A stretch of DNA of 64,000 nucleotides from an uncultured virus (IMG/VR IMGVR_UViG_3300029913_001576) (IMGVR_UViG_3300029913_001576), one strand, 5' to 3'; counted from the stretch's first letter, positions 508 to 60,008 are shown. Made by a program: numbers and translations. Notes: generated from the letters alone by a model not told the origin.

Positions 508-618
508 GCCGGGACTGCGTTAGAAGCCATATCGAGTCCCGCCAAGATGATCGGCAGGGACTGCTTTGGTTTCAAGGGGACTATTGAAAAAAAATGCACC
601 CTCCGCCGCCGACTGCGT

Positions 619-882
619 TTAGACCCAACACCAAAGGCGGTAGCCGCCGTAGAAGAGCAGCGGGACCACGAAGGTCGAAACCCATGTCACGCCTGCCCCC
701 GCGGCCATGGCCTGCCGATAATTCAGCCGATTAGGGTTTCGGTAGATCCACTGCTCCTTGTACATGCGTAGACCGTTAAGCAGGCCGATCAGGCACCAGA
801 TGGCCGACGCCAAAGCCACATGAAGAGTGTTCGAAGATTGCTCCGTTGGGCTGTTGGCAGGGAATCCGCCGGCGGGCACCAA
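619..882 (-). CDS. membrane protein, start uncertain
   Basis: Two hydrophobic segments; the frame stays open and hydrophobic upstream to beyond 1000 without an in-frame ATG/GTG/TTG. Confidence 0.45.
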   Translation of the reverse strand: MVPAGGFPANSPTEQSSNTLHVALASAIWCLIGLLNGLRMYKEQWIYRNPNRLNYRQAMAAGAGVTWVSTFVVPLLFYGGYRLWCWV

Positions 883-1022
883 GATGAAGGAGAGCAGTAC
901 AGTGGAGACTAGGGCCGAAACAGCTCCGGCAAAGTAGCCGGAGGTGTCTGGCGTGATCCGGAGAACGACAGTGTAAATGGCAGGTGCTGCACTCGCCCTA
1001 TTGGCGCATGGGGCATGGCGCC

Positions 1023-2186: not shown

Positions 2187-2338
2187 AGGGAGGTTGCGCC
2201 GGGATGATTCGAAAGAGACACATCTGACGCATCGCCCCAAAAGGGCCGATCCGTCGTCTTTTGCGGGCTTGAACTTATTAAAGGCGCACATGGGTCTGCT
2301 CGATTGGGACGTGGTCCGATTGTTGGTCGCCAAACAAG

Positions 2339-2776
2339 CTAAGAGAAATCGACCTCCTTGCGGGCTTCCAACCTGGCTAATTTGGAGCCGTAGATGATTT
2401 CGAGGTTCTTCCGGATTCCGTCGATCTGATCCCGGCATTTTGCGGTGACCCCTTCACTATCAAGGAGCAATTCGCCAGCTGCAAAGCGTCGGAGAATAAT
2501 TCCTGCATAGGTGGCGATCATGTCGAGCCACTGCTCCTTTGCGAAGGAGACAGGGTATGGCTCCCCTCGATCCGCGGCTTCCTGTGCCGATTCCTTGAGG
2601 TCCTGCAAACGACTCCATAACGAAAAACATGCGTCGCTTAAAGGACCCGTCCCGTCGGAACAGTCGTTGCCTGTTAGGAGGCGTTCTTCATCGGTGAGTA
2701 GAGCCGCGAAGGCGATCTCAGCCTCGACGATTTTGGTGAGAGCCGCAGCCCGGGATGTGTGAGTTGAGGATGACAT
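2339..2776 (-). CDS. hypothetical protein
   Basis: 145 aa helical ORF; CCCATAATT motif upstream at about 2819-2827. Confidence 0.6.
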   Translation of the reverse strand: MSSSTHTSRAAALTKIVEAEIAFAALLTDEERLLTGNDCSDGTGPLSDACFSLWSRLQDLKESAQEAADRGEPYPVSFAKEQWLDMIATYAGIILRRFAAGELLLDSEGVTAKCRDQIDGIRKNLEIIYGSKLARLEARKEVDFS

Positions 2777-2892
2777 GGTGAAAAAGCGTGCTTCGACGGA
2801 CGAATCGCCGCCTTATCCAATTATGGGAGGCGCCTCCCACGAAACCTCCTCGTGGCAACCAAAGAGAGGGCGGCCTCACGCCTTCAGCGAAG

Positions 2893-3135
2893 CTATTGCG
2901 GACGGAGCATATCCGGCCAACCCCATCGTGCCTGCTGCACCAGGCAGCGACGCTGATGTTGCACGATTCCCTTGGTGGTGAAACGCAGGCCGCACGCGCA
3001 TAAGCACTTAGCCGTCCCCGAAGATCCTGTGTTAAAGGTTCCCCTGGACCTTCGGCGCTTGTCCGCACGAGTCTGCAAACGAGCCAACTGATCGGCGGAG
3101 AGCTTGAGCGGTTCCCTATGCATGGGGGTTGCCAA
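2893..3135 (-). CDS. small zinc-finger-like protein
   Basis: CACGLRFTTKGIVQHQRRC motif. Confidence 0.5.
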   Translation of the reverse strand: MATPMHREPLKLSADQLARLQTRADKRRRSRGTFNTGSSGTAKCLCACGLRFTTKGIVQHQRRCLVQQARWGWPDMLRPQ

Positions 3136-3141
3136 AGCGCC

Positions 3142-3477
3142 CTACCCCACGCTTTCTGGTGCGAAGTCGGCGTAGTGGAGCGCGGCTTTCTCGACGAAAT
3201 GCAGGTCGAGCGGCGGAAGGCCCTCAAATTTAGCCAGGTAGCCGGATTCGGAGAAGGACCCCACGTACTCGATTTGCTGCACCCTCATGATGCGTGCTGG
3301 CAGATTGCGGTTTGGGTATGTCACTGCCACGAACTCTCCGCGCTCAGGCACCCACCTCGCTGGCGTCGATCCGTCGGGCAGTTCAACAGAGACGGCCCGC
3401 GGCCGATAGCGAAGGACCAGGATGAGCACTGCGAGGAAGACCGCAAGGGCCGGGATCGTGGGTAATGTCGAGGGCAT
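3142..3477 (-). CDS. membrane-anchored hypothetical protein
   Basis: Start MPSTLPTIPALAVFLAVLILVL; N-terminal TM helix. Confidence 0.55.
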   Translation of the reverse strand: MPSTLPTIPALAVFLAVLILVLRYRPRAVSVELPDGSTPARWVPERGEFVAVTYPNRNLPARIMRVQQIEYVGSFSESGYLAKFEGLPPLDLHFVEKAALHYADFAPESVG

Positions 3478-3484
3478 GGGGAAG

Positions 3485-3673
3485 TCAGTCACGGCCTGCG
3501 TCGGATGTGCCGATCCATGAAGCGCTGGCCATGCAAAGGAGAGCTGCGCCGCCAAAAGCCACGGCCATGAGCCCGCCCGAGCGGAAGCACGCACCGAAGC
3601 AAACGAGGCCCGCGGTCACCGCGAGAACGGTGTTGCGGAGGCTATAGGTGCAGAAAAATCGGGTAAGGTTCAT
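3485..3673 (-). CDS. small membrane protein
   Basis: 62 aa, two hydrophobic segments. Confidence 0.5.
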   Translation of the reverse strand: MNLTRFFCTYSLRNTVLAVTAGLVCFGACFRSGGLMAVAFGGAALLCMASASWIGTSDAGRD

Positions 3674-3699
3674 TCGTTACAGGAAGAGGGTGGACTGGC

Positions 3700-3939
3700 C
3701 TACGCCGGGGTTGAGACTCCCGGCACCGGCTCTTTGATGTCGCCGGCGTCGATCCTGGAACGAAGGACTGCCGCCGCAGCGGCGAGACGGTTATACGCTT
3801 CGATGGTGCCGATCTGCACTTCGAGACTGCGAACTGCGGTCTCAAGCCCGAAATCGCATGGCCTCTTGATAATCTCCGGAGCTTTGGCGAGGAAGGCCGG
3901 AGAGGTAAGCACATCGCCCTTGGGTGCAGTTGGAGGCAT
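3700..3939 (-). CDS. hypothetical protein
   Basis: 79 aa; fits the tightly packed minus-strand array. Confidence 0.5.
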   Translation of the reverse strand: MPPTAPKGDVLTSPAFLAKAPEIIKRPCDFGLETAVRSLEVQIGTIEAYNRLAAAAAVLRSRIDAGDIKEPVPGVSTPA

Positions 3940-3965
3940 CGGGTGGCTATGTTGAACTGAGGCAA

Positions 3966-4178
3966 TTATCGTCTTCGCGCCCGTTGACGAATCCAGCGTT
4001 GTAATGCGGTTCCTGGCCAGAAAATCCCGAAGCCTACGGAGAGGAACCCGATCATGATAAAGACATCGTTCTCAAGGGAAGCCCACCGGCCTGCATCGTG
4101 GATCGCAAAGCCAAGGTATCCGCAAACGACTGCGAGAGCCCCGAAAGCGACGAACAGAACGCGGTCGAGGATCTTCAT
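3966..4178 (-). CDS. small membrane protein
   Basis: MKILDRVLFVAFG...; two TM helices; start overlaps the upstream stop. Confidence 0.55.
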   Translation of the reverse strand: MKILDRVLFVAFGALAVVCGYLGFAIHDAGRWASLENDVFIMIGFLSVGFGIFWPGTALQRWIRQRARRR

Positions 4179-4399
4179 AGCGGCACTGCCACAGGGGCTT
4201 TGGACGCTCGGCAAATGAATTCGCTTAGGCATTTACCGCAAACCGGGAGAGCATAGGGGTTGGCGGAGATTGGCCCGCCCTCCTCCTCGAAAAGAAACGG
4301 CTCGTCGCATTGCGGACAGCGGATCTTTCCAGACGTGACCATCGCGGCGTCAAAGGCGGATTCAGCTGCGGCCTCCATGCGCTCAACTTGATCCATCAT
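4175..4399 (-). CDS. zinc-ribbon protein
   Basis: CPQC ... CGKC pairs. Confidence 0.6.
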   Translation of the reverse strand: MMDQVERMEAAAESAFDAAMVTSGKIRCPQCDEPFLFEEEGGPISANPYALPVCGKCLSEFICRASKAPVAVPL

Positions 4400-4440
4400 C
4401 GAGATTTCGGGTTGAGGGATTGGATGCGAGCAACGCCTCG

Positions 4441-4629
4441 TCAACGAGGGGCGACTCCGAAAGACCGCCTCATGATGCTGGAAGCAAGGAGGCAGGTTCC
4501 TCCGAAAAACACGCCGCGAACACTGTAGGTCGCCGAGTAGGTCGGGCAATCAGGCCAGAACGTGGCGAGCAAGAAAAGCAGGAGTCCAAGGCCGAGAAGT
4601 ACGAGAGTGGCGGGTTTGCGAGCGTTCAC
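4441..4629 (-). CDS. small membrane protein
   Basis: GTG start 5 nt after a CATCTT motif; two TM helices. Confidence 0.55.
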   Translation of the reverse strand: MNARKPATLVLLGLGLLLFLLATFWPDCPTYSATYSVRGVFFGGTCLLASSIMRRSFGVAPR

Positions 4630-4647
4630 GGTGTAAGATGGGAGAGG

Positions 4648-5196
4648 TTACGGGGAGTTAGTCTGAGCGTAGAGAACCCCAGCCTTAGACATATAGTCCT
4701 CAACCGTAGTGTGGTCCTGAATTAGATCGTGGACAGGGAAGGTGTTTTTGGTGTGCCACTGACCGTTGGCTTGCTCGAATTGAATCACCCAAAAGCCGAT
4801 GGCCGCGCTCGGGAAGAACGTGTTAGTGATCTGAGCCCTGCCGGCAGTCCCGTCGATCCATGGGGTCCAAGTGCGGTCCCATGTCCGCGACTGCGAACAT
4901 TCAACCACGAGTTTGAATCGCTGCGACACCCCATTCATGCGGTCGGTCTCCGTAACTGGCACGGCGTAAATGGATGTTCGCGGACCGTGGAGTTGAACGA
5001 GTTGTAGTTTCTTTGAGCCGAGGAGTTTGTTGACCGCACACCAGTCACCAGTGGTCGTCAGGCGAAACGTGCTGTTGAGCAGCGTGTCTGCTTGAATCTC
5101 GTTCGCGGACGGAGCATGCGCCAACTGGACTCCCTCTCTCGAACAAGCGCAGGTCGCGATTACAGAAAGGAAAGCGAGTGTAGCCTGGAATTTCAT
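4648..5196 (-). CDS. putative lipoprotein
   Basis: MKFQATLAFLSVIATCAC lipobox-like signal. Confidence 0.6.
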   Translation of the reverse strand: MKFQATLAFLSVIATCACSREGVQLAHAPSANEIQADTLLNSTFRLTTTGDWCAVNKLLGSKKLQLVQLHGPRTSIYAVPVTETDRMNGVSQRFKLVVECSQSRTWDRTWTPWIDGTAGRAQITNTFFPSAAIGFWVIQFEQANGQWHTKNTFPVHDLIQDHTTVEDYMSKAGVLYAQTNSP

Positions 5197-5228
5197 TGAA
5201 CGTGGGCGAACTGGCGTTGGTGGAGGTA

Positions 5229-5555
5229 TCAACCCGCCGTGTGAACTGTGCTTCGTCGAAGACGCCGAGGGTTGATCGCGGAAACATCCGACCCGTCTTC
5301 GAGACGAACGGCCAATGCGAACATGCGCTTCGAACTTACGGTCACCCGTTTCGGAGGCATTGCACGCCGAAGTCGGGTTGCATGGTCGCGGGCTCGCTCA
5401 AGCACGGCCTTGTCCGGGCAGCTGGCGCCACTGACCTTCTTTTCGCCGGGAAGCTGCCCAAACCTGGGCGAGCAGGCGCGAACCAGTGATTCGAGCACAA
5501 CGAGAGTGTCTTCGTGACTGGAGGGAAGGCTTCTGGAGGAACGGATCTGTTTCAT
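5229..5555 (-). CDS. hypothetical protein
   Basis: 108 aa basic ORF in the array. Confidence 0.4.
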   Translation of the reverse strand: MKQIRSSRSLPSSHEDTLVVLESLVRACSPRFGQLPGEKKVSGASCPDKAVLERARDHATRLRRAMPPKRVTVSSKRMFALAVRLEDGSDVSAINPRRLRRSTVHTAG

Positions 5556-5562
5556 GGGGGCT

Positions 5563-6045
5563 TCAGGACGGCGTGTTGACGAAGACCCATTCGCCCGGGA
5601 ATTCATCTCGTGTGTGCTGGGCCGAAAGGGAGTATCCGCCGTACTTTCCGCTGGCTGAATAGAGACTCAGGTTGCCGGAACCGAAGGAGCGCACTTCGCA
5701 CATCTCCCAGGGATGCTCGGGTGCCTTTCGGTACTGCCAAAACCCAACTTTGTCGGGAAAGCTTGTTTTGCCCTTCGGGCAATTCCTTGGGAGTGGCGGA
5801 TACGGCATGAAGTGTGTCGGTCGTGCCGTGACGGGATCGCGGTGGTTAAGCCAGAACCCCTCTTCGCCGGTAGTGGGGTGAAAATAGCTGTCGATCCCGA
5901 TCACATCAGCGTCGTTGACCACTATGACGGGGTCGGACCAACAGCTCCCATTTGACGGGGGCACCCCCGGTGTCCAATCGCCAAAGCGCGCTACAGGCGA
6001 TAAACCAGGTGCGGTCGGCGGGCGAGCAAGGGTCTTGGATGTCAT
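5563..6045 (-). CDS. hypothetical phage/plasmid protein (DUF551-like N-terminal half)
   Basis: W...PP...PTHFMPYPPLP pattern. Confidence 0.55.
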   Translation of the reverse strand: MTSKTLARPPTAPGLSPVARFGDWTPGVPPSNGSCWSDPVIVVNDADVIGIDSYFHPTTGEEGFWLNHRDPVTARPTHFMPYPPLPRNCPKGKTSFPDKVGFWQYRKAPEHPWEMCEVRSFGSGNLSLYSASGKYGGYSLSAQHTRDEFPGEWVFVNTPS

Positions 6046-6081
6046 GATGGTTTAAGAGAAGATGGGTACCCCCCGGGGGGC

Positions 6082-6720
6082 CTATTTGAAGTACGGCACA
6101 AGGGGGGTTTGGTAGGCAAGATAGAGAGGATGAATAGGGCTTCCATTGATGTTCTTGCCGAAGCATAGAACCTTGTTCAGGCTGCACACTTCGCGAAGAA
6201 GACGCTCGACCTCGGCACCGCGGCCATGCTTGTGCCCTGGATTGCCCCAGCACACCACGACGAAGCGAGCGGCAGGAACGATCTTCCGAATCCACTCATC
6301 GTTCTCGGGAAGGTTCACACAGGGGAAATCCTTCAGTCTGGTCGATGCCGTCAACCTGATCGAAAGAGCGTTCAACTGGTAGTAGCCGCCAACACTCCAG
6401 TGATCCCTCGCACGGATGACCATTCTATCGACGGTAGAATCGCCGAAAATTTCGTCGGCCCGACTGGGGTTCATACCAATCCCGACAACGTAATCATTGG
6501 GGTTGCGCTCCTCGAAGGCCCGAAACCACGTGAACCGATGCGCGCGGTCCGCGCTAAAAAGTGTTCGTGCTACGTCCTGAGGGTGCTTCGCCCTTGTGAG
6601 ATCCGGCTTCGGCGGGAGAGCACCTGGGGCGGCGGACGTGAAGCCGCCTCTCTTTCCTTCCCGAAGAGAAGGAGCCGCTGATTCGACGGCTAGAAAGGAT
6701 AGCTGGGAAGAATTGGGCAC
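6082..6720 (-). CDS. DUF1643 family protein
   Basis: IGMNPSRAD, VVVCWGN and GSPIHPLY motifs. Confidence 0.85.
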   Translation of the reverse strand: MPNSSQLSFLAVESAAPSLREGKRGGFTSAAPGALPPKPDLTRAKHPQDVARTLFSADRAHRFTWFRAFEERNPNDYVVGIGMNPSRADEIFGDSTVDRMVIRARDHWSVGGYYQLNALSIRLTASTRLKDFPCVNLPENDEWIRKIVPAARFVVVCWGNPGHKHGRGAEVERLLREVCSLNKVLCFGKNINGSPIHPLYLAYQTPLVPYFK

Positions 6721-6750
6721 GTGAATGCGAAGTCGGCTCGTTCTCGTTGC

Positions 6751-7173
6751 TCAAGGGGGCGAGGGAGCGTTGCCAGACTTGGCCGTCTCAATGGCCGCCT
6801 TTAACTTGCGATATTGAGTCAGCTCGGCGAGATGGTCGCCAAAGCCTATCTTCCAAGCAAGAATCACGTTGCCTCCCGTGGTGTGAAGCGTCACTCGGGT
6901 GCTCCGGACGAAAGAGGCCACGAGCCAAAAGAGCAGCAAAGGGAGGAGAGGTATCAAGAACACCTTGAACATGAAACCGCGGAACAGGACTGCTAAAAAT
7001 GCGCAGGGAACGGCTGTAGCCAGCAGGGGAATAAGGGCAACGGCGACGAAGTTAGACGAACGCACATCGACAGAAGACACTTTGTCGAGGAACAAGGTGT
7101 GGTTGGCCGTGCGAATCTCGGTCCTTGTGACCGTGATGGTACCGTCGGAGTAGTAATTTTCGGGAGGTGCCAT
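6751..7173 (-). CDS. DUF6232-like membrane protein
   Basis: YYSDGTITVT...VSSVDV N-terminus followed by two TM helices. Confidence 0.6.
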   Translation of the reverse strand: MAPPENYYSDGTITVTRTEIRTANHTLFLDKVSSVDVRSSNFVAVALIPLLATAVPCAFLAVLFRGFMFKVFLIPLLPLLLFWLVASFVRSTRVTLHTTGGNVILAWKIGFGDHLAELTQYRKLKAAIETAKSGNAPSPP

Positions 7174-7238
7174 TGGGGAGGGAGCGCCATGTTCAATTAT
7201 GGGGGGGGCACGCCATAGAGGTGCGGGAGGTCGGCGGC

Positions 7239-7736
7239 CTATTTTGAAGTCGGGACGCGTTCAACAGTGAGTGCGATCCCCGTCGGCGTCGTGACTTTGT
7301 GGACAATGTAGACGGAGTCGTAGTTGGCTGCGACCAGAATCTCACCTGGGATACGGTGGTTAGACAGCTGGTCCTGAAGGGAGATCAAGTTCTCCAATGT
7401 GTCGCGCACACGGTTGGTGCGGTGGTCGCCTTCGTCGCAATGCACCGACATCAGGGGGTACCCAGGCGTGCGGTTCAGCGTCTCCATCAGGCGTTTCTCG
7501 TCCTTGACGTGCTCCTGTGTATCAAACCTTACGGCAAACCGGTGCCCCTCGTAACAAATAGCGCCAACGACCAACCACACCACGGTGGCTAGAAGGAAAC
7601 GAGGGGTATTCTCTGCGACGGTCTTTTTCTTGTCGCGAACAGAAAGGCAAATGCCGAAGAGGATCGCCAGTGCGAAGAGAACATTGAGGAGGGTGTTCGA
7701 AGTGCTGTTAAGGGAGTTGGAGAAGCTTGCGATCAT
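7239..7736 (-). CDS. membrane protein
   Basis: Two N-terminal TM helices; 165 aa. Confidence 0.6.
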   Translation of the reverse strand: MIASFSNSLNSTSNTLLNVLFALAILFGICLSVRDKKKTVAENTPRFLLATVVWLVVGAICYEGHRFAVRFDTQEHVKDEKRLMETLNRTPGYPLMSVHCDEGDHRTNRVRDTLENLISLQDQLSNHRIPGEILVAANYDSVYIVHKVTTPTGIALTVERVPTSK

Positions 7737-7763
7737 AGGAGGAGGTGGTTTGAGGTAAGATGG

Positions 7764-35937: not shown

Positions 35938-36237
35938 TCACGTAGCCGCCCCCACCCCCCGGGGGGCCTCCAACGAGGCGTACCAGCGAGCAATTGTGCG
36001 GCGTAGCAGGTCGTCAATCAGGAGTGTGCCGGTGCCTGCCATGACCGCCGGCGCAACGGTGGCAGGGATATGCATGACCGCGCCGTGATGATGCCGAGCG
36101 GTCTTCACCGTCGAGGCAATTTCGGGGTGCTCGGCCGCCAAGAGCGACAACATCCCGTCCGGGCGTAGGAGCGCGTGGTACTCGTCTCCGCCGAGAAAGA
36201 CATCCAGTCCTTCTGAGGATTTGCTAAGGACTTCCAT
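35938..36237 (-). CDS. hypothetical protein
   Basis: 99 aa; coupled to the PLD-like gene. Confidence 0.55.
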   Translation of the reverse strand: MEVLSKSSEGLDVFLGGDEYHALLRPDGMLSLLAAEHPEIASTVKTARHHHGAVMHIPATVAPAVMAGTGTLLIDDLLRRTIARWYASLEAPRGVGAAT

Positions 36238-36787
36238 TGTATGTGGGCAGCCAACTCCTTATGAGCGCGAAGCATGTGGCCGCAGTCTGGTCATGGGCGA
36301 AGATGAGAATTGGGACATCCTCGGTCTTCATCTGGTCGGAGGAGAGAATTGGGGACGTGCAGACGATGGCCGTGGAGCGGTCGGAAACGAGCATGAACCC
36401 TCGAATGGGCATCGTGCTCACGTAGACGGGGATTTGGTGCTGGATCAGCCAGGCCCGAGCCCCGGCCGGGGGATTCGAGTTGTTGAGGGCTTGGGCGCCC
36501 GAGAGCACCACGGCTACCGAAACCCTCTTGGTGCCGGCCTTTTCTAAAGCCTCCAGCACGCTCTTGTTGTTGATGAAGTCCGCTCCGAGAACGATGGAGG
36601 ACCTCGAATGGCCGATTACCTCTATCAGGGCGGGCACACTGTCTGCCCCTCGCTCTACTAGGTGCCCGAAGATGTAGGGCCTGTAGCCGAGCTTCTTGGC
36701 TACGTACGGGGTAAGAGTGAGCCCGATGGCAGTAGCTGCCGAAACGAGCCCCAGAATAGCTAGGGTCAGAAAGATAACACGCTTCAC
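36224..36787 (-). CDS. phospholipase D/Nuc-fold protein with degenerate HKD motif
   Basis: N-terminal TM helix; LIEVIGHSRSSIVL...VLEALEKA...VSVAVVL; the HKD position reads IRGFMLVSD. Confidence 0.6.
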   Translation of the reverse strand: MKRVIFLTLAILGLVSAATAIGLTLTPYVAKKLGYRPYIFGHLVERGADSVPALIEVIGHSRSSIVLGADFINNKSVLEALEKAGTKRVSVAVVLSGAQALNNSNPPAGARAWLIQHQIPVYVSTMPIRGFMLVSDRSTAIVCTSPILSSDQMKTEDVPILIFAHDQTAATCFALIRSWLPTYNGSP

Positions 36788-41328: not shown

Positions 41329-41976
41329 ATGAGCATTTTTTGCAGGATACTGCCGCTGGCCACCTTGGTCTTGACCGCCATTACGCTTCATGCCGACGAC
41401 GCGCTTACACCGCCGGCCGCGCAACCTTCAGACGACTCGCTTGGGGCAGACCAGCAGAGGGCTCTCAGCAGCGCGGACGGCGTAGGAGACGGAACGCTTG
41501 CCACAGTGATGAACGCATTCCTGCGGGCCTACGCGGGTGACAAAATGGAGTGGCGCGTTGCCAAGGACCTGAAGCTCGGAATCGCCGAGAACTCGACACT
41601 TCCGGACGGATGGCAAAAGGCGAAGCATCCAAAGTACGGATGGTTCGCGTTCAGGCCGAAGACCTACGACATGCTGTCGCTGGAGGAGAGGCGGGCGATC
41701 ATTCGCGACGTGCGCTTCCCTCAGTTCATTGCCCAAATGCGGGTCGTGGCGGATGGGAAGAACCCTCCTCTGAGCGATGCAATGAAGCTCGCGGCTAACG
41801 CTCCCGCCACGGCTCCGGACCCCACGAACCATCCGTTACCTAGGGCCGAGGTCATTGCGCGCCTGCTAGAGGGCCGGAAAGCGATGCCAGACACCTTCGT
41901 GTTCGATGTGTCGGCAAATGAGCTGCTGGCGCCGGGTCGCATGATTGTGACCATCCAGCCCGACTCCACGCCATGA
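41329..41976 (+). CDS. secreted hypothetical protein
   Basis: Signal peptide; ATG 6 nt after a CAAAAT variant motif. Confidence 0.7.
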   Translation: MSIFCRILPLATLVLTAITLHADDALTPPAAQPSDDSLGADQQRALSSADGVGDGTLATVMNAFLRAYAGDKMEWRVAKDLKLGIAENSTLPDGWQKAKHPKYGWFAFRPKTYDMLSLEERRAIIRDVRFPQFIAQMRVVADGKNPPLSDAMKLAANAPATAPDPTNHPLPRAEVIARLLEGRKAMPDTFVFDVSANELLAPGRMIVTIQPDSTP

Positions 41977-42533
41977 AGATCGTCGCCACAGCCATTTTGG
42001 CGGGCCTGTTCTCCGCGGCTGGCTTTGGTCAGCAATATCCCGCCCCGCTCACCCCTCTGCCAGCGGTTCCCCTTCCAGCGGGTATCGTGGTTGAATTCAG
42101 CGCAGACGGAGCGGACATCGTGGGAGACGTGGCAAAGTACATCGCCGCGGCCAAGCACGAGGTACTCGTCTCGGAATATCTCGTCACCGACATCCGGGTC
42201 CTTGAAGCACTAGCCGAAGCCTGTCAGCGAAATCGCTTTGTAGCAGTCGTGCTCGACAGGAGTCCAGCTGTTCGGAATTACGACACCCCTAGATACCTTC
42301 GCTCGCAGGGTATCCCCGTGGTCCTGGCCCCCCGGGGGGCAGACGGGCACGGATGGCACAATGAGCGCTTTCTGGTGATTGACCGAGAATTGGTGATTAC
42401 CACGACCTGCGACCTGACGCTGGCGGCCGCAAGGAATACGGAAAGCATGAGGGTTGATCGGGAGGTCGCGATCATGACGCGCTACTTTAACGCGTGGATC
42501 GCCGAAGCAGGACGCGGGACGCGCCTTCAGTGA
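41973..42533 (+). CDS. secreted PLD/Nuc-family nuclease-like protein with altered HKD motif
   Basis: FS...IAAAKHEVLVSEY..TD..VLEAL...VAVVLD; HNERFLVID; AAARNTES. Confidence 0.75.
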   Translation: MKIVATAILAGLFSAAGFGQQYPAPLTPLPAVPLPAGIVVEFSADGADIVGDVAKYIAAAKHEVLVSEYLVTDIRVLEALAEACQRNRFVAVVLDRSPAVRNYDTPRYLRSQGIPVVLAPRGADGHGWHNERFLVIDRELVITTTCDLTLAAARNTESMRVDREVAIMTRYFNAWIAEAGRGTRLQ

Positions 42534-48261: not shown

Positions 48262-49827
48262 CTATATCCCAATTATGGGGAGACGATCCTCGGTTAACGG
48301 AACCGGCATCTTAAGTGCCCTGAACCGAGGAGCGTGGACCTTGGCAAAGATGCTCGGGACTGCGGTCGGGTCGGCCGGCTTGTGGGTCTCCGCCTCGCGT
48401 TCGGCTGCCACTACCATGCCCCGTTCGGCGAGGTTTTCGACCCACGCACCGGACGGTAGTTCGCGGGTGGATTGGGTGTCGTCCATGCCCGTCAGTGCTC
48501 CAAGGAAGGAAGGCCGGGTGCCAAATGTTGCGGCCGCCGAGACATGGAATTGGGCTACGGCAAACCCCGTATTGGCCATCAGGGCGTCCAGCTTGGCACG
48601 GCTCAAATCGAGTGATCCGCGGTAGGCTTTCATGGTGTCGCCGACCTGTGCCCTCTGGCGGGAATTCCACTTGCGCCGAGCCTCCTGAGCCGCCCAAACG
48701 TCCAGCGGGGGAGCCCTCATTTCGCGGCCAGCAAGGGCCACATAGGCAGTCTTTCCGGAAGGCTGCGGGGTCGCATGTTCAGAGAAGACAGGGGAATAAT
48801 CCCCCGCCTCGGCGGGCGCCCGGGTGGCATTAAAGGCATCCATCGCAGCTTGGGAATGCGCGGTAGAGGCAGCTGTCCACCCGTCGTGGATCTCGGTCCA
48901 GCGAGCGCGAATCCGCTCAGGAGACGGGGTGCCACGGGGGGGCGTCAGACACTCCGATTCGATCTGCTGACGGGACTCATCAATGGTCTTTGCAAGGGTC
49001 ATTTTACCCCTCGCCGAGGCCACCAACGCCGCCGCAGCCGAGGCCGCATCCAGCGATCCAGGGCCTACAGCAAGCATCGAATGGCGGCAAAGAAGGAGCC
49101 AATATGCGAGCTTCGCAGCTATCGAATCCGGAGGGTTGATGTCGCGGCTTAGGCTAACGAAAAGCTGCCGCGCCCGTAGGTTGAAGGTGTTCCGAAGAAA
49201 CTCAAAGCGGTCCTCCTGCTCCTCTTTCTTGTCGAAGTCATTTCCTGAGAACCGGATTAGTTTTCCTGACTCGGTGGTGGGGTGTACGAGCGCATGGCAA
49301 TGCGGATTCTCGGTGTCGTGGTGGCACCCGACAACGTACCCAATGCTCTGGCCTGGGTAGAACCGGGAGGCGTACTGCGTGAGGGTATCGTGGAGGGTCG
49401 CCAGCAACATTGCGTCGATGGGATACCCCAGTCGATTCATCTCTTTTGCGATGCGTGGGTCGAAGGAGGCCGTGACGTGATGCCCCTTGATTGCCGCGTC
49501 TGCTCGGTCGGTTTTCCACCACTCAAGAAGGTGATTTATGGTGGATGTAGGCTGAGCTTTCGTGACATCAACACCGTGCCTGCTAAGCTCTGTGGCAAGG
49601 TGTCCGAAGGTCCAAATTCCTGAGGCAAAGGGGGTGTATTCGGCCTGTTTCTTGTCGGTTGCTTGGGCTCCAGAAGGGGCTCCAAGCGATGAGATAGCCG
49701 TGATCTTTGTGGTCTCGTCGATATAGGATCGGAGCAATTCACTGAGGCGTTTGTTGGTCTTAACCTCATTCAATTTAGCCCACACCCCGGCAGTGTTTGG
49801 AACGCGAGAAAATGCCTCGTAATTCAT
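48262..49827 (-). CDS. relaxase, MOB-P/VirD2-like HUH endonuclease
   Basis: Motif I ..SYI.., motif II HHVTASF, motif III HHDTENPHCHALV; start MNYEAF inferred from ATGA overlap. Confidence 0.75.
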   Translation of the reverse strand: MNYEAFSRVPNTAGVWAKLNEVKTNKRLSELLRSYIDETTKITAISSLGAPSGAQATDKKQAEYTPFASGIWTFGHLATELSRHGVDVTKAQPTSTINHLLEWWKTDRADAAIKGHHVTASFDPRIAKEMNRLGYPIDAMLLATLHDTLTQYASRFYPGQSIGYVVGCHHDTENPHCHALVHPTTESGKLIRFSGNDFDKKEEQEDRFEFLRNTFNLRARQLFVSLSRDINPPDSIAAKLAYWLLLCRHSMLAVGPGSLDAASAAAALVASARGKMTLAKTIDESRQQIESECLTPPRGTPSPERIRARWTEIHDGWTAASTAHSQAAMDAFNATRAPAEAGDYSPVFSEHATPQPSGKTAYVALAGREMRAPPLDVWAAQEARRKWNSRQRAQVGDTMKAYRGSLDLSRAKLDALMANTGFAVAQFHVSAAATFGTRPSFLGALTGMDDTQSTRELPSGAWVENLAERGMVVAAEREAETHKPADPTAVPSIFAKVHAPRFRALKMPVPLTEDRLPIIGI

Positions 49828-50135
49828 CGTGAAGCCTCCGAAAAGACCTTGTTTCGCATGGACCTTTGGAGGCCAACGGCGTCCAACAAAGCCTTCTCCG
49901 CCAGGGGCAGAAGTTCGTCGAGCCGGGCCTCCATTTTGCGCCTTAGGTCGCGGCAAAAGTCGAGGTCATCCATAAGGGTCGCCTCGTCGTTTAGGGACCC
50001 GTCCTCAAGCATTCGGCACCCAAATTGAACGATCAAAGCGGCGGCCTGCTCAGGGGTAAGGCCCTTCTTTTGGGAGATCAAAACGAGCGACTCCATGGCC
50101 TTATCAGATAGGTTAATTGGAAGCGGAGTGCTCAT
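49824..50135 (-). CDS. relaxosome accessory protein candidate (RHH/MobC-like)
   Basis: INLSDKAMESL...KKGLT N-terminus; coupled to the relaxase. Confidence 0.5.
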   Translation of the reverse strand: MSTPLPINLSDKAMESLVLISQKKGLTPEQAAALIVQFGCRMLEDGSLNDEATLMDDLDFCRDLRRKMEARLDELLPLAEKALLDAVGLQRSMRNKVFSEASR

Positions 50136-50516: not shown

Positions 50517-50782
50517 GTCCCACCTGAGGGAGAAAACCCCCAAACGAAGGGGGTGGGACGGTTTTCAGGAGTCCCACCTAAGGGAGAAAAAGGCCCAACG
50601 AAGAGGGGGGTCGGGGCACATTTGAAAAAGACCGCGTCCCACCTGAGGGAGCAAAAACGCTATCGAGTCCCACCTGTGGCAGCAAAACACCCCACGAAGA
50701 GGGGGGGACGACGAATCAAGAAATCAAAAACGTCCCACCTAAGGGAGAAAACACCCCAACGAAGGGGGTGGGACGTTTTTGA
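50517..50782. repeat. array of GTCCCACCT direct repeats with inverted partners (candidate oriT / iteron region)
   Basis: GTCCCACCT at 50517, 50571, 50636, 50667, 50732; four ACGAAG(A)GGGG copies; perfect 16-bp inverted repeat 50724-50739/50767-50782. Confidence 0.85.
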
Positions 50783-54356: not shown

Positions 54357-55001
54357 CTAGCGAGCCCGTAGCTCTAGGGAGGCCCCCCGGGGGGTAGGCA
54401 AACGGCGGGTCGCTCGCCGTGGGAGGAGGCCCTCAAGGGCGGCAAAGTCGTGCTCCGGTGTGCCGCTCAGGATCACATTCTGAAAGGTGGCCATTTCAGC
54501 CAGCTCAACCGAGGCGCTTGCCATGCGGCGCGAAAGCTCGGCGGGAGACATGTTGCCACGGGCAACCAGGCGGTCCCGAAGAGTATCGAGGGAGTCGGCG
54601 GCCACGAAGACCTCTATCAGCCGGCCATGGAGGCGGGGATCGCCCGAAGCAGCCTTCCTCAGGCTTCGGGCGCCCTGGATGTCGAGGATGCCCACAAGGT
54701 TCGTATGGTCGAGCCGGTCAACGACAGCGGACCGCAAAGTCCCATAGCGGTGCTTCCCGTGGACGTACGCCCATTCCAGGAAGTCGTCGCCCTGGAGGCG
54801 GGCATCGAACTGTGCCTCACTCATGAACAGATAATCAACGCCGTCCACCTCGCCTGGTCGCGGGTCGCGGGTCGTGGCAGTCACGAGACGCTCAAAGCCA
54901 GGGACCTCGCGAGCAACCCGGTTGCACAAAGTCGTCTTACCGGCGCCTGACGGGCCGACGATGACAAGGAGGTGTGTCGGGGACTGTGAATCGTGCTGCA
55001 T
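54357..55001 (-). CDS. gmk: guanylate kinase
   Basis: GPSGAGKTT, TTRDPRPGEVDGVDYLF, FLEWAYVHG..YGT, DIQGA. Confidence 0.92.
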   Translation of the reverse strand: MQHDSQSPTHLLVIVGPSGAGKTTLCNRVAREVPGFERLVTATTRDPRPGEVDGVDYLFMSEAQFDARLQGDDFLEWAYVHGKHRYGTLRSAVVDRLDHTNLVGILDIQGARSLRKAASGDPRLHGRLIEVFVAADSLDTLRDRLVARGNMSPAELSRRMASASVELAEMATFQNVILSGTPEHDFAALEGLLPRRATRRLPTPRGASLELRAR

Positions 55002-55048
55002 CCTCAACAAGTATGGGGGGGGGCGATTCGCAGCGCGTTCAAGATGCA

Positions 55049-55195
55049 CTAGACCCGGAAGACGCCGTAGACATGGCGCGGGGCAACAGCCGTCCGGTTC
55101 CGGCGCTCCATCGCCATGCGGATCAGGACGTACATCGCAGGGAGAAAGAAAACGAGGGCGACTACAGCGTAGTCGAAGGGCTCAAGGGGTGTCAT
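55049..55195 (-). CDS. small membrane protein (48 aa; not in the ORF track)
   Basis: ATG 5 nt after CATCTT; single TM helix YAVVALVFFLPAMYVLI. Confidence 0.55.
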   Translation of the reverse strand: MTPLEPFDYAVVALVFFLPAMYVLIRMAMERRNRTAVAPRHVYGVFRV

Positions 55196-55211
55196 GACCC
55201 AAGATGGCGAC

Positions 55212-55433
55212 TCAACCCCCGAGGACCGGCTGCTTCGCGCGGATGGACTCGATCATGCGAAAAGCGCCACCCGGACCATCCGGGGCCGTGAGCGAGCGGT
55301 TCGCCTGCATCCGCTCATTGTCCGAAAAGACATCCTCCTTGACCGCACGCCGCATCCAGTCGTCGAGGCTCTCGGCGGACGTGGGGGCGCAAAGGTCGGC
55401 GATAGCTACGAGGAGTTCTTCGATGTCATGCAT
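55212..55433 (-). CDS. hypothetical protein
   Basis: 73 aa; CATCTT motif upstream. Confidence 0.6.
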   Translation of the reverse strand: MHDIEELLVAIADLCAPTSAESLDDWMRRAVKEDVFSDNERMQANRSLTAPDGPGGAFRMIESIRAKQPVLGG

Positions 55434-55449
55434 GGTGCGTCAAGATGGG

Positions 55450-55749
55450 TCATTGGCTGAGCGAGTTTTCGAGCGACATAAGCGCAGGATGTCCGTGACC
55501 AAGAACCTTGTTCAGCGCCATGGACACCCGACCAGGAGTCAGGCCCATTTCTCCGTAGGAAAGGCGACCGAGCCTGACGGCGAGCTTGCGCGCCTGCTCG
55601 GTGGTGATGAGGGCATGGCTCACAGCTCGGTCCAGAGCGCCTGGCACATGAGCCGGTGCGACTGTGACCGGATTGTGGAACTTCTCCTGTTGGCGAAGAC
55701 CAACCGAGTGGTGCGTGTCGTTGTAGAGGCCGGAGATGGATTTGGACAT
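55450..55749 (-). CDS. hypothetical protein
   Basis: 99 aa; ATG 5 nt after CATCTT. Confidence 0.6.
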   Translation of the reverse strand: MSKSISGLYNDTHHSVGLRQQEKFHNPVTVAPAHVPGALDRAVSHALITTEQARKLAVRLGRLSYGEMGLTPGRVSMALNKVLGHGHPALMSLENSLSQ

Positions 55750-55783
55750 AAAGCAAGATGGGTCGGCGGCTCCTCTGGTCCGA

Positions 55784-55975
55784 TCAAGCGTGCGCAGGAG
55801 GGGCGGATTTGGCGGACGCAGCCTGGAGTTCTGCGTTAAACCGGCAGAGATAGTCGTGGGCTGTCTCGACGTTGTAGTTCCTGCGATTCACCGCGTCCGC
55901 GACCTTCTTCGAGAAGGTCTCGAAAATGGCCTTACCTGTTGCTTTGCACGTCACGATCCAGCTATGAGGTTGCAT
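55784..55975 (-). CDS. small hypothetical protein
   Basis: MQPHSWIVTCKATGKAIFETF...; ATG 5 nt after CATCTT. Confidence 0.65.
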   Translation of the reverse strand: MQPHSWIVTCKATGKAIFETFSKKVADAVNRRNYNVETAHDYLCRFNAELQAASAKSAPPAHA

Positions 55976-56044
55976 GTGACAAGATGGAGTTCGTAGGACA
56001 GCGACGGAAGTCGCTACACTCGCCGCCGGGATAGCCCCTAAGTC

Positions 56045-56080
56045 AAAAGGGGTGCCTGGCTTACCCATGGCACCCCTTTT
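56045..56080 (-). terminator. intrinsic (possibly bidirectional) terminator
   Basis: AAAAGGGGTGCC...GGCACCCCTTTT 12-bp inverted repeat just downstream of the tRNA-like gene. Confidence 0.75.
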
Positions 56081-56086
56081 GGAAAT

Positions 56087-56149
56087 TGGCGGCCGCGTGG
56101 GATTCGAACCCAGAGGCTATCATCCCCTGCCCCAGTGGTCAGCGCAGCC
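56087..56149 (-). ncRNA. 63-nt truncated tRNA-like RNA with encoded CCA
   Basis: Acceptor stem GGCTGCG/CGCGGCC, G discriminator plus CCA, T arm TGGG-TTCGAAT-CCCA, stem with 7-nt loop ATGATAG. Confidence 0.65.
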
Positions 56150-56190
56150 GTATAAGGAACCTAGTGAAGCAAGATGGCCTGAGCGGAACG

Positions 56191-56433
56191 CTAACTCCGG
56201 TCCCGAAGGGCAACCGTCGCTCCCGTCGAGTAACGGCCTGTGGGAACGATTGCGGCGGTGAACCGCTCGTTCAGTCGGCCCAAGATCGTGTCCAGTCGGA
56301 ACTCGGCATTGGGACGGCCACCGTTCCTCCGAAGCTTCGACCCGACGATGGACTCCACCTTGCTGGTCGCTACTTCGTAGACGACGACATCAAAGAGAGG
56401 CGCTGTCGATTGCGAGTGGGTTTGCATGGGCAT
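56191..56433 (-). CDS. hypothetical protein
   Basis: 80 aa downstream of the methyltransferase. Confidence 0.55.
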   Translation of the reverse strand: MPMQTHSQSTAPLFDVVVYEVATSKVESIVGSKLRRNGGRPNAEFRLDTILGRLNERFTAAIVPTGRYSTGATVALRDRS

Positions 56434-56441
56434 GGGAGTGG

Positions 56442-57797
56442 TCAGGTCGAGGCGAAGAGGGGAAGGTCCTCGACTCCGCTCGAAACAGGGGCGCGCACGA
56501 TGGCGGTTGCCGCTCGGATCACGGCGGTGAAGAGGGGGACGTAGACCGCCTGACCCAAAAGTCTCCAGGCGCGAGTCTTGGCCTCGGGGAGTACGTAGCT
56601 GTCGTTCAGGCCAAAGATTCGGCGGCCCTCGCTCACGGTGAAGTAGCGATAGGTGTCCGGCAACGTGGGATGGGCAAGCAACGGCTGATCGTTCTTAGTT
56701 TCGCCATACTCGGCGGTCAAAGTGCCCATGGAAATATCAGTCGGTTTGACGACCTGGAACCCGAAACCGCTACCGCGCTCAGCATTGCGCTCGTTGACCC
56801 GGAAGACCCACGGCTTGCTTTCGCGGTTCCACCAAAGCTCCTGGGGAACGTCGCGGTCAAGAAGGTCGCCCACGGTGGTGCGCCGGGCATCAGTCGCGAG
56901 GGGGGTCGGCCACACAAAGGGCTGGCGGCCGGCCTCGGGAGTCGTGGCAACGAGGACGGTGCGCGTGCGCTTTGAAACCGCGCCAAAATCCGCAGCGCTC
57001 ATGACCTGGCTGTCTACGCTGTAACCCAGGCGGCGGAGGGCGCCAGAGAGGCTTGCCCAAAGCTCCTTATCCTTGAACCCCGGGGCGCACTCCAGGATGA
57101 CCGTGCGCGGGTTGACGCGGGAGATGATGAGGAACGCCCAGAAAGCCATGTCGCCCAGCGGGTGTTCGGTGGCGGGCCGCGAGCGGTCGATCTTGCTGCC
57201 GTCGGCGTTGAGCGTGCGGCAGCGCGCCCAAGGCTGGCATGGGAGGCCGAGTAAGAGCAATTCAACCGGCGTGAGACTCGTGGAAAAAGCCGCCTCGTGG
57301 ACCGACATTTCGTAGACGGCCGCGCTCGGGTGGTTTCCGGAGTAGGTGTCGGCCGTGCTGCCCTCGATCTCGACCGCCCATTTGGCGGTATAGCCGGCCT
57401 CGACGCCGGCCTGGTCAAGGAGGCCAGCGCCGGAAAAAAGGGAGCCCATCGAGCCATCGCTCGGGCGCGCCCGCTGCTGTTGGTCGAGCGGATGGACCGT
57501 AAGCACGATCTCGCGCTCGCTCACTCGCACTTGGATCGTCCGGGAATCGCCGAAGACCTCCGACAAAAACTTCGCATTGAGGTCGATCAAGGGGTGCCCG
57601 TTCTTCTCTTGGACGCGCTTGCCGGAAGGCTCCTCGCAAGGGCTGATCGAAAGAGTGCCCGCGCCCATTCGGATCGAAATCCATTGGCCGCCGGCGAAAC
57701 CGGCCCTGGCAAGGTATCGGGCATTGACGAAATAGCGGGGTGCGCCGCGCTGCTGCCCAAGATGCACTACGGACTCATGGATGAGGTTCGATTTCAT
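56442..57797 (-). CDS. C5 cytosine DNA methyltransferase with extra N-terminal (AbrB/SymE-like) domain
   Basis: SLFSGAG (motif I), GLPCQ (IV), LECAP (VI variant), KRTR (VIII), RYFTVSEGRR, LLGQAV (X). Confidence 0.88.
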   Translation of the reverse strand: MKSNLIHESVVHLGQQRGAPRYFVNARYLARAGFAGGQWISIRMGAGTLSISPCEEPSGKRVQEKNGHPLIDLNAKFLSEVFGDSRTIQVRVSEREIVLTVHPLDQQQRARPSDGSMGSLFSGAGLLDQAGVEAGYTAKWAVEIEGSTADTYSGNHPSAAVYEMSVHEAAFSTSLTPVELLLLGLPCQPWARCRTLNADGSKIDRSRPATEHPLGDMAFWAFLIISRVNPRTVILECAPGFKDKELWASLSGALRRLGYSVDSQVMSAADFGAVSKRTRTVLVATTPEAGRQPFVWPTPLATDARRTTVGDLLDRDVPQELWWNRESKPWVFRVNERNAERGSGFGFQVVKPTDISMGTLTAEYGETKNDQPLLAHPTLPDTYRYFTVSEGRRIFGLNDSYVLPEAKTRAWRLLGQAVYVPLFTAVIRAATAIVRAPVSSGVEDLPLFAST

Positions 57798-58994: not shown

Positions 58995-60008
58995 TTAGGC
59001 CGCAATCCCTTGAACGTGGCGGGCTGCGAAGAACTTCCCGATTGCCTCGCCAAGTGCCTCAAACGGGCGGGCGACAACGCCCTGCCCAAGGACCTCATAC
59101 GCGGTCGTCCGGGGAAGTTTGGCAATGGCGGCGATGAAGGCATCGTCAAACCCGTGGATGCGGGCGACCTCGGTCGGGCGAAGGAGGCGGTAGCTGCCCT
59201 CGCTTGTGCCGCTGCTCACGAAAACGCCCGTGGGCTGAATCTTGCCATACGACTTCGGAATCGTCGGGACCTTCACGCTTTGGCGGGTAAGGATGCGGCG
59301 GGAGAACCCGCAACCTTCGCTGGCCTTGCGGTCGCAATACTTCGTGTGTGCTGCAACCTGCGCGGGGCTGAACTCGTCGGCCTTGTCCTGATCCGTGACC
59401 GGGTCCAAAAGGTTCTCAATCGTGCCGCTAAAGTGGACCGGGGAGTAATCCCAGCTGAACCGGCCCAAACGGGAGGCGACCATGACCCAGCGCACGCGCT
59501 CCGTAGCGGTGTTGAAGTCCGTGAACGGATTGACGACGTACTCGCTCAACTGGTAGCCAATCGCCGAGAGGTGGGCGCGAATGGCTGCCGCGCTGAAGGT
59601 CGTCCGGTAATTGCTTACGTTCTCGAAAACGACGCCCTCGGGGCGGCGCAGCGTGATTTCGTGGAGAGTCGGGATGAACAGGTGCCCAACGTCCGGGTGC
59701 ATCTCGGCGCACGATAGACCGTTCTTGGAAATGCCCGCTGAACTCGCGCCGGTGCAGGGAATGCCAGCGAGGAAGATGTTCGTCGCGTTGCCGGAGGGAA
59801 AGCTGGTCTCCTCGGGAGCATACCCAGTGACTGAACCAAGGGCGGTCGAGGCTTCGGGGTGCTGGTCGGAGAAAAGGCGCAGGTAGCGACCGTCAATCTC
59901 GACGACTCCAGCGACGGCCACCTTGCCATAACGGGAAAGGCCACGGGAGAAAGGGGCGCAGAGCGTGCCCATCCCGGGGAAGAACTCTTTGAGAGCGAAG
60001 GTTGCCAT
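58995..60008 (-). CDS. C5 cytosine DNA methyltransferase
   Basis: FFPGMG (I), GIPCTG (IV), FENV (VI), ERVR (VIII), RLLRPTEVARIHGF, LGQGV; start MATFAL 5 nt after CATCTT. Confidence 0.88.
   Translation of the reverse strand: MATFALKEFFPGMGTLCAPFSRGLSRYGKVAVAGVVEIDGRYLRLFSDQHPEASTALGSVTGYAPEETSFPSGNATNIFLAGIPCTGASSAGISKNGLSCAEMHPDVGHLFIPTLHEITLRRPEGVVFENVSNYRTTFSAAAIRAHLSAIGYQLSEYVVNPFTDFNTATERVRWVMVASRLGRFSWDYSPVHFSGTIENLLDPVTDQDKADEFSPAQVAAHTKYCDRKASEGCGFSRRILTRQSVKVPTIPKSYGKIQPTGVFVSSGTSEGSYRLLRPTEVARIHGFDDAFIAAIAKLPRTTAYEVLGQGVVARPFEALGEAIGKFFAARHVQGIAA

Follow-up and report, generated by a model that had tools for sequence, protein, structure and literature searches.

Irregular tRNA-like genes and allo-tRNAs have been described from Acidobacteria and from soil and peat data, and some of the encoded RNAs are charged while remaining unused in translation (Mukai et al., 2017, PMC5389517). 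Some of these genes have toxin-antitoxin or transposon genes as neighbors, and regulation has been suggested as a role in the available sections of two reports (PMC5389517; PMC7609411). They are the closest known things to the gene treated here, a 63-nt tRNA-like RNA gene encoded in a stretch of 64,000 nucleotides from an uncultured virus (IMG/VR IMGVR_UViG_3300029913_001576; this whole stretch is termed the window), where it runs on the minus strand from 56149 (5' G) to 56087 (A of CCA). As far as the accessible parts of the cited work go, the window RNA and allo-tRNAs are alike in their occurrence in soil and peat metagenomes, in non-canonical stem lengths, in traits reminiscent of tRNA-Ser and tRNA-Sec (G73 and what may be an extra arm) and in an association with mobile or toxin-antitoxin loci. 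The RNA nevertheless differs from the described irregular tRNA-like genes in size and branch: allo-tRNAs are characterized there by a 12-bp branch (8/4 or 9/3), an anticodon arm, a long variable arm and a length of about 90 nt, whereas the window RNA is about 30 nt shorter, combines a 7/4 branch with a single inner hairpin and resides in a gene array of a conjugative element. The 7/4 branch is accompanied by G73, and an eighth acceptor pair (C56150-G56090) would consume this discriminator.

The tRNA-like domain of transfer-messenger RNA (tmRNA) consists of an acceptor stem, a T arm, a reduced D region and a further helix and has no decoding anticodon arm. The window RNA is similar in that acceptor stem, T arm and reduced D region are combined with one more helix leaving the core; in contrast to tmRNA, its third pair is C3-G70 instead of G3-U70, and message domain and pseudoknots are missing. 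The ARAGORN tmRNA search was negative, and no tmRNA family was found among the Rfam matches. Armless and arm-reduced mitochondrial tRNAs share with the window RNA a length in the range of 54-65 nt, a reduced D region and very short connectors (available sections of PMC7609411), but they belong to organelles with adapted factors, whereas the window RNA is not called in the mitochondrial mode of ARAGORN and has a fully bacterial T loop.

On the minus strand the sequence reads GGCTGCG-CTGACCACTGGGGCA-GGGG-ATGATAG-CCTC-TGGG-TTCGAAT-CCCA-CGCGGCC-G-CCA, in exact agreement with an earlier annotation made from the DNA alone, the original prediction, which had proposed a stand-alone mini-tRNA gene with its own promoter motif and terminator and had considered a tRNA mimic or decoy and, alternatively, a decaying tRNA. 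The acceptor 5' strand GGCTGCG (56143-56149) pairs with 56091-56097 and is followed by a D-like hairpin (56128-56141; TG, a bulged A and CC, the loop ACTGG, then GG and CA), the inner hairpin GGGG-ATGATAG-CCTC (56113-56127), a T arm with a 4-bp stem (56098-56112) and the acceptor 3' strand with discriminator G and encoded CCA (56087-56097). Two covariance models, R1 built from nine tRNA-Ser genes and R2 from 19 class I tRNAs, were run against a 2.5-kb region (55000-57500), and both returned 56087-56149 on the minus strand, i.e., exactly these ends, as top match. R1 scored 20.2 bits (E 1.3e-4; runner-up 7.3 bits) and R2 24.1 bits (E 2.7e-4; runner-up 8.7 bits), with the reservation that the E-values of both models are rough and that the automatic structure of R2 is poor and contains 15 pairs only. 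Since both models match exactly these 63 nt far above the respective runners-up, we conclude from sequence comparison that the RNA is tRNA-derived beyond chance. The exact sequence GGTTCGAATCC is unique in the 64-kb window (three matches at up to one mismatch, one of them exact).

Canonical tRNA detectors reject the gene. ARAGORN reported neither a tRNA nor a tmRNA in the whole window; its relaxed and metazoan-mitochondrial modes yielded nothing on the minus strand, and at a threshold of 70% a single spurious call appeared on the opposite strand. Rfam gave no match at gathering thresholds, and in E-value mode the best clan member was tRNA-Sec at 56089-56151 with 18.4 bits vs. a threshold of 47 (E 0.87). 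These scores, the short acceptor/T stack and the absent variable loop detailed below are in line with the original prediction that this is not a standard decoding tRNA; the RNA is probably a tRNA look-alike rather than a working decoder.

The structure emerging from folding is that of a compact four-helix RNA with a 7-bp acceptor stem, a bulged 4-bp D-like hairpin, a 4-5-bp hairpin with a 7-nt loop, a 4-bp T arm and a G-CCA end. The acceptor stem comprises seven pairs including one U-G, as stated in the original prediction, all with predicted pair probabilities of 0.96-1.0, and it is followed by discriminator G and CCA as in canonical tRNAs; T loop (TTCGAAT) and CCA are intact. The T stem has four pairs only, with a C-C mismatch at the fifth position, where both the R1 and the R2 alignment place a deletion, and the acceptor/T stack therefore amounts to 11 bp vs. 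the canonical 12. Between the CCTC of the inner hairpin and the TGGG of the T stem there is no nucleotide at all, vs. at least 4 nt in the canonical variable region, and the D arm is reduced to a bulged 14-nt hairpin of 4 bp, the 5-nt loop of which (ACTGG) contains the GG and is shorter than the canonical 7-11 nt on a stem of 3-4 bp; both the missing variable loop and the reduced D arm had been recognized before. In total the interior is about 13 nt shorter than that of a canonical tRNA, with all seven acceptor pairs kept. The compact cloverleaf was calculated at -22.0 to -22.7 kcal/mol, which is 4.6-5.3 kcal/mol above the minimum-energy fold. When ordinary tRNAs were treated in the same way, their cloverleaves were found 0.2-8.7 kcal/mol above the minima in the eight of 19 rows onto which at least 19 of 21 pairs could be projected, the other 11 having been dropped as misaligned. 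The gap of the window RNA falls within this range, and folding energy is therefore neither for nor against the cloverleaf.

The inner hairpin is ambiguous. Its 7-nt loop ATGATAG carries U at position 2 and A at position 6, as does an anticodon loop, which agrees with the GAT (Ile) anticodon proposed in the original prediction. On the other hand, the Rfam tRNA-Sec model and R1 agree in assigning the hairpin to the long variable arm and in leaving the anticodon arm missing, with 12 nt in the R1 alignment taking the place of 35 model positions (D and anticodon arms), and the hairpin abuts the T stem in the manner of variable arms. Of the Ile reading, the loop features have thus stood, whereas the assignment of the hairpin to an anticodon arm has become ambiguous; the loop appears to fit an anticodon loop equally well. 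Similarity to class II tRNAs (tRNA-Ser and tRNA-Sec) extends to the T arm, which is identical to the tRNA-Ser consensus of alignment A3 at 16/16 positions, to G73, which fits tRNA-Ser/Sec, together with CCA, and to the longest partial blastn matches, which are phage tRNA-Ser genes covering hairpin and T arm with 84% identity at a non-significant E of 3. Class II tRNAs differ from the window RNA in that the latter is without an anticodon arm in that alignment, has a D hairpin of 14 nt and one T-stem pair fewer, bears an unrelated acceptor sequence and scores far below thresholds. The two models do not separate derivation from a class I tRNA and from a class II tRNA: R2, the structure of which is poor, scores as well as R1.

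In all four peat runs examined (X18, X20, X21, and X22) a second contig was detected that carries a diverged short copy of the gene. It differs from window positions 56081-56129 at six of 49 letters without gaps (88% identity) and then continues into unrelated sequence. In RNA orientation, the flank 5' of this block reads ...GAC-GGCTGTG-CTGAAGCAATGGGCT. The 5' acceptor strand GGCTGTG is present, and its T in place of C6 would still form a U-G pair, provided that the opposite base is the same as in the window. With 2 additional nt in the D region, the whole RNA would comprise about 65 nt if its 3' end matches that of the window RNA, and the D hairpin features AGC/GCT instead of CC/GG within the same TG...CA frame with the bulged A and a loop AATGG instead of ACTGG. 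On its 3' side the homologue is without a hairpin, and an ATG is located 10 nt past CCA. Because a diverged copy on another replicon is equally short, the comparison indicates that the short form is shared and not a private deletion. Neither of two outcomes named beforehand as speaking against a functional RNA, a deletion private to this copy and a match limited to the 3' half, was encountered: the diverged homologue is short as well, and similarity spans the 5' acceptor strand and the D region. The second contig (15,092 nt at a depth of 14.3 in X20 and 7,520 nt at a depth of 9.7 in X21, vs. about 5-6 for the window's element) is 2-3 times deeper than the element in the same peat samples.

The 63 nt are located in a non-coding gap between an 80-aa open reading frame (ORF; 56191-56433, minus strand), the last gene before the tRNA-like unit and an orphan that retrieved nothing but itself from the protein collection, and the following ORF, which starts at 55975. 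A CCATCTTG motif, which recurs throughout the element, is found at 56177-56170 on the minus strand, 20 nt 5' of the RNA; it is followed by CTTC and an A (56165) and has no start codon here. If transcription starts at this conserved A, as the fixed spacing of the motif suggests, the 5' leader would comprise 16 nt (56150-56165). On the other side, the trailer ATTTCC (56086-56081) leads into a terminator-like hairpin (trailer and hairpin together 56045-56086) that begins 7 nt past CCA and consists of the arms AAAAGGGGTGCC (56080-56069) and GGCACCCCTTTT (56056-56045), forming 12 bp with A4 and U4 flanks and a folding energy of -29.6 kcal/mol in a 55-nt context. A simple terminator scan, limited to loops of up to 8 nt and T-runs of at least five, does not list the hairpin, which has a longer loop and a T-run of four. 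With the recurrent motif on one side and the strong hairpin with its U-run, separated from CCA by the 6-nt trailer, on the other, the stand-alone character of the unit proposed in the original prediction found support, and the hairpin is a candidate terminator. Downstream of the hairpin, the next gene has its own CCATCTTG motif (55980-55987) and encodes 63 amino acids (motif and ORF together 55784-55987, minus strand).

The CCATCTTG motif is present in 20 copies vs. 2.28 expected, and none of 100 shuffles reached this number. Seventeen copies are located on the minus strand between 53177 and 63337, before nearly every small gene of the array; weaker variants occur near 550-7763. ATG follows exactly 4 nt past the motif in 12 of the 17 cases and 7-14 nt past it in four, with none at the tRNA-like unit. 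Position +4 is a pyrimidine in 17/17 and position +5 an A in 16/17 copies, including four of the five sites that are devoid of ATG at +5, and the motif at the tRNA-like unit also keeps Y at +4 and A at +5. At the 17 motifs neither upstream -35-like conservation nor a Shine-Dalgarno-like stretch was observed, and a scan for sigma-70-type promoters returned none in 55000-57000. We infer that the fixed Y-A fits a transcription start that would give rise to leaderless messages; CCATCTTG-N3-Y-A(TG) looks like an element-specific start signal for leaderless or near-leaderless messages or, alternatively, a signal acting at the RNA level. The idea that the motif marks gene starts of the host in general was considered and rejected: CCATCTTGNNNYATG occurs in 1-4 scattered copies in 150 of 401 Acidobacteriota genomes (a count that includes the unpublished genomes G563, G792, G758, G718, and G854), is by eye commoner than its reversed control, and its ATG opens an ORF of at least 100 aa in one of 12 loci examined.

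Taken together, we tentatively favor, in a case that is close to balanced, the reading that the gene encodes a conserved functional, non-decoding tRNA-like small RNA within the array of an undescribed peat conjugative element. According to this proposal, transcription would start at the motif (conserved A 56165), supplemented by read-through from the methylase operon, and would end at the hairpin. Acceptor/T minihelices are cut by bacterial RNase P, and the transcript is a plausible substrate of this enzyme because of its 7-bp acceptor stem, T loop and encoded G-CCA; together with 3' trimming, cleavage would release a 63-nt RNA ending in CCA. This RNA would present the acceptor/T-arm face of a tRNA, possibly with an acceptor and an extra arm of the tRNA-Ser type, and could be bound, charged or modified by enzymes blind to the anticodon while remaining unused by the ribosome. 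Its role may then be that of a mimic, a decoy or a regulator as the element becomes established. Any specific target of the RNA is proposed with much less confidence than its functional nature.

A number of observations weigh against a conserved functional RNA. Apart from the rejection by ARAGORN and Rfam, in the minimum-energy fold the two 3' hairpins are fused into one irregular hairpin, with acceptor stem and D-like hairpin retained, and folding of 66 nt is weak (z -1.54; 15 of 200 shuffles are as good). The one extra pair and the changed pairs in the D hairpin of the homologue stem from a by-eye comparison of two sequences, and the comparison concerns the flanks of a single homologue with the D region as the sole helix compared for covariation. 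All copies of the element are 100% identical and therefore uninformative on selection within it. The stretch is present in 22 of 24 listed runs, all of which are peat DNA and none RNA; several of them are possible sources of the window. Searches for homologues in Acidobacteriota samples of 401, 137, and 401 genomes (939 in sum, possibly overlapping, and including the unpublished genome G025) and in phage, plasmid and viral collections returned none. Finally, the leading-region status of the array, the position of the origin of transfer (oriT) and the promoter role of the motif are all inferred.

Several of these points would equally be expected from a decaying tRNA pseudogene, i.e., a captured tRNA, tRNA-Ser-like in its T arm, G73 and 3' trailer, that lost internal parts and is functionless. 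Such a relic would account for the absence of ARAGORN calls in all modes, the Rfam score far below threshold, the T stem that is one pair short, the absent variable loop and the weak folding z-score, and allo-tRNA pseudogenes with disrupted stems are known from Acidobacteria (available sections of PMC5389517). The neighborhood points in the same direction, as the ORF upstream is an orphan and the gene order is not maintained in a relative identified via the adjacent methylase. In this methylase-guided survey, a scan of genome contigs yielded no relative and a viral scan only a 30% fragment, while a metagenome scan returned identical copies and one relative with 66% identity (L004), the locus of which contains a different downstream gene and is without a tRNA-like element. 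Against decay stands that all seven acceptor pairs survive despite an interior that is about 13 nt shorter, that T loop and CCA are perfect, that a diverged copy elsewhere is arranged in the same short way, its D-like hairpin having changed on both sides of the stem, and that the RNA is equipped with the start motif of the array and a hairpin of its own. A decaying tRNA is now less likely than when the original prediction was made; we consider it doubtful, albeit deserving serious attention.

The RNA might also serve as tRNA punctuation, in which case RNase P and enzymes of 3' processing would be drawn to the fold, neighboring messages would be cut and protected, and the small RNA would be a by-product. 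The RNA closes the methylase-ORF80 unit on its 3' side, and no hairpin separates the two. In the homologue, moreover, ATG follows 10 nt past CCA without a hairpin, and cleavage there would generate a near-leaderless message resembling the ATG starts 4 nt past the motif elsewhere in the array. In the window, however, a strong hairpin and not a gene comes next, and a separate copy of the start motif belongs to the unit. Precedent in the plasmid literature is lacking as well: the main text of a survey of leading regions contains 0 occurrences of "tRNA" (PMC11541004), and non-pseudo tRNAs are recorded on only three plasmids in the available portion of a second source (PMC13478746). Punctuation therefore appears improbable to us.

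Within the reading as a functional RNA, one specific version can be formulated, for which we see just a slim chance: an anticodon-less stand-in for tRNA-Ser, expressed early, that soaks up tRNA-directed defense or toxin enzymes reading the acceptor end and the extra arm. Phage tRNAs that counter tRNA-targeting defenses, e.g., those of T5 acting against PARIS and retron systems, are full-length and decoding. The window RNA is comparable in being a tRNA-shaped RNA on a mobile element beside anti-restriction genes; unlike these full-length decoders, it is not callable as a tRNA. Nucleotidyltransferases of the MenT/AbiE type block the CCA end and prefer tRNA-Ser via its long variable loop (available sections of PMC11162799), and such enzymes or a sensing mechanism dependent on seryl-tRNA synthetase are possible candidate targets. 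If this version were true, the RNA would be the first RNA anti-defense decoy of a conjugative plasmid.

A remnant of a recombination site, i.e., the tRNA-end part of an att site belonging either to this element, if integrative, or to a second inserted one, is unlikely and retains very little of its initial appeal, which lies in the 49-nt block (from the inner hairpin to 6 nt past CCA) that is 88% common with another replicon and in a T arm with GCCAATTTC tail that resembles the ends of Acidobacteriota tRNA-Ser, tRNA-Cys, and tRNA-Ala genes and of prophage-borne tRNA-Ser. A Pfam scan of 70 ORFs from across the 64 kb detected neither integrase nor recombinase families; the RNA includes a 5' acceptor strand and a D region, both with similar counterparts in the homologue, itself not a canonical tRNA; the exact 22-nt T-arm/acceptor/G end was found in one of about 185,579 species genomes, and there within a coding region and not in a tRNA; and the site is located inside the motif-punctuated array and not at the end of the element. 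A working compact decoder, either tRNA-Ile(GAU) or a serine-accepting suppressor-like tRNA, is the least probable of all, since the 7-nt loop with U at position 2 and a purine at position 6, the G-CCA end, the canonical T loop and the capacity of irregular 8/4 and 9/3 tRNAs from soil bacteria to translate in Escherichia coli (available sections of PMC5389517) are set against an acceptor/T stack of 11 instead of 12 bp, 0 nt between inner hairpin and T stem, a D loop of 5 nt, the failure of every detector including the mitochondrial mode of ARAGORN and the alignment of the hairpin as a variable arm by tRNA-Sec and R1.

Leading regions of conjugative plasmids are known stores of protein anti-defense genes. 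In the plasmid literature, as far as the accessible parts of the sources go, tRNA-shaped genes are absent or set aside as integration relics, and among the papers listed by full-text literature searches none described a tRNA-like gene located in a leading region or serving as a decoy of plasmids; in those papers the term "tRNA-like" was missing or appeared once in an unrelated context. Should the gene indeed be a conserved stand-alone look-alike in such an array, an RNA player would be added to plasmid establishment, the irregular tRNA-like genes of soil bacteria would be extended to a much smaller form, and a possible natural minimal substrate for RNase P, the CCA-adding enzyme, synthetases and tRNA-targeting toxins would become available. 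A merely decaying tRNA would be of little consequence.

The window represents a conjugative element, as evidenced by genes of a type IV secretion system (T4SS), a coupling protein and a relaxase; the encoded proteins include ATPases of the VirB4/TraC-like and the VirB11-like type and a TrbI-like protein, and the relaxase (48262-49956) is of the MobA/VirD2 type. It is identical over 11.0-11.4 kb to two other metagenome contigs (L002 and L003). Searches with the VirB4-like protein did not point to a host: it had no match at E<=1e-30 in 401 genomes of one class, its best PLSDB match is distant (26% identity) and an Atlas search returned mixed phyla. The array of small genes extends from about 50.8 to 63.9 kb on the minus strand, is oriented toward a repeat region and includes two orphan C5 methylases and a guanylate-kinase-like gene; PHROGs and NCBIfam were uninformative for the small proteins of this array, most of which are nameless. 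The repeat region between relaxase and array consists of five 44-nt direct repeats (50517-50775) with 61-100% identity to the reference copy, each with the inverted arms GTCCCACC...GGTGGGAC, and could be an origin of transfer or a replication (iteron) region. The RP4-type nic motif yielded 11 matches vs. six expected, with none in the repeat region.

According to the available sections of a survey, orphan methylases are a hallmark of leading regions, and the orientation of genes with the transferred strand as template is one of their traits (PMC11541004). By this reasoning, the array next to the relaxase is a presumptive leading region. The methylase closest to the tRNA-like unit (56442-57797, minus strand) is an orphan C5 DNA methylase with a 116-aa N-terminal extension (Pfam PF00145, E 1.5e-27) and forms part of a small family, with 21 relatives at 53-79% identity; in tblastn it gave matches with less than 30% identity on 977 PLSDB plasmids, of which 776 are predicted to be conjugative. 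The second orphan C5 DNA methylase is encoded at 58995-60008 on the minus strand.

Searches for relatives of the RNA itself mostly led to ordinary tRNAs. In the Acidobacteriota samples, matches were restricted to the level of the T arm (tRNA-Ser, tRNA-Glu, tRNA-Cys, and tRNA-Ala) apart from one 35-nt match in a coding region. The tRNA genes of the sampled Acidobacteriota often end with ...CCAATTTC(C/G), as does the tRNA-like RNA, which hints at a 3' processing context of the host type and does not identify the host. A blastn search with 3 kb against phages and plasmids gave no match. With a 100-nt query, three plasmid matches at E=3 and matches in 131 phage records were obtained; among the 25 phage matches listed, query cover was at most 35%, and most were positioned under annotated tRNA genes and some in unannotated sequence. 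A pattern scan of viral sequences gave four matches, three inside ordinary phage tRNAs and one in a non-tRNA; a second viral scan and a scan with the 5' part of the homologue returned 0 matches each, and a further one revealed a degenerate tRNA-like stretch beside phage tRNAs. The latter is located between called tRNA genes on a viral contig (L014, 1000-1057, minus strand), has a 20-nt T-arm/acceptor end in common with the window RNA, is not called by ARAGORN and scores 19.9 bits with R2. In the unpublished genome G025, use of which requires permission of the depositors, an ordinary tRNA (53 bits with R2; locus L024, about 1320-1670) is followed by two partial tRNA-end copies (19-20 bits) in a 130-nt tandem repeat. 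This arrangement is typical of a tRNA gene at which insertions have recurred, and it has no connection with the element of the window.

Further genes of the element deserve mention with respect to possible cargo functions. The guanylate-kinase-like gene (54357-55049, minus strand) is supported by a Pfam match (E 2e-26), stays below the cut-off in NCBIfam (144 bits vs. 160) and constitutes an unusual cargo. Two small proteins are encoded adjoining the coupling-protein gene (36224-36787 on the minus and 41973-42533 on the plus strand) and exhibit a weak TIR match (20.7 bits, below cut-off) and a PLD-like match (30.4 bits), so that they are possible defense or anti-defense cargo.

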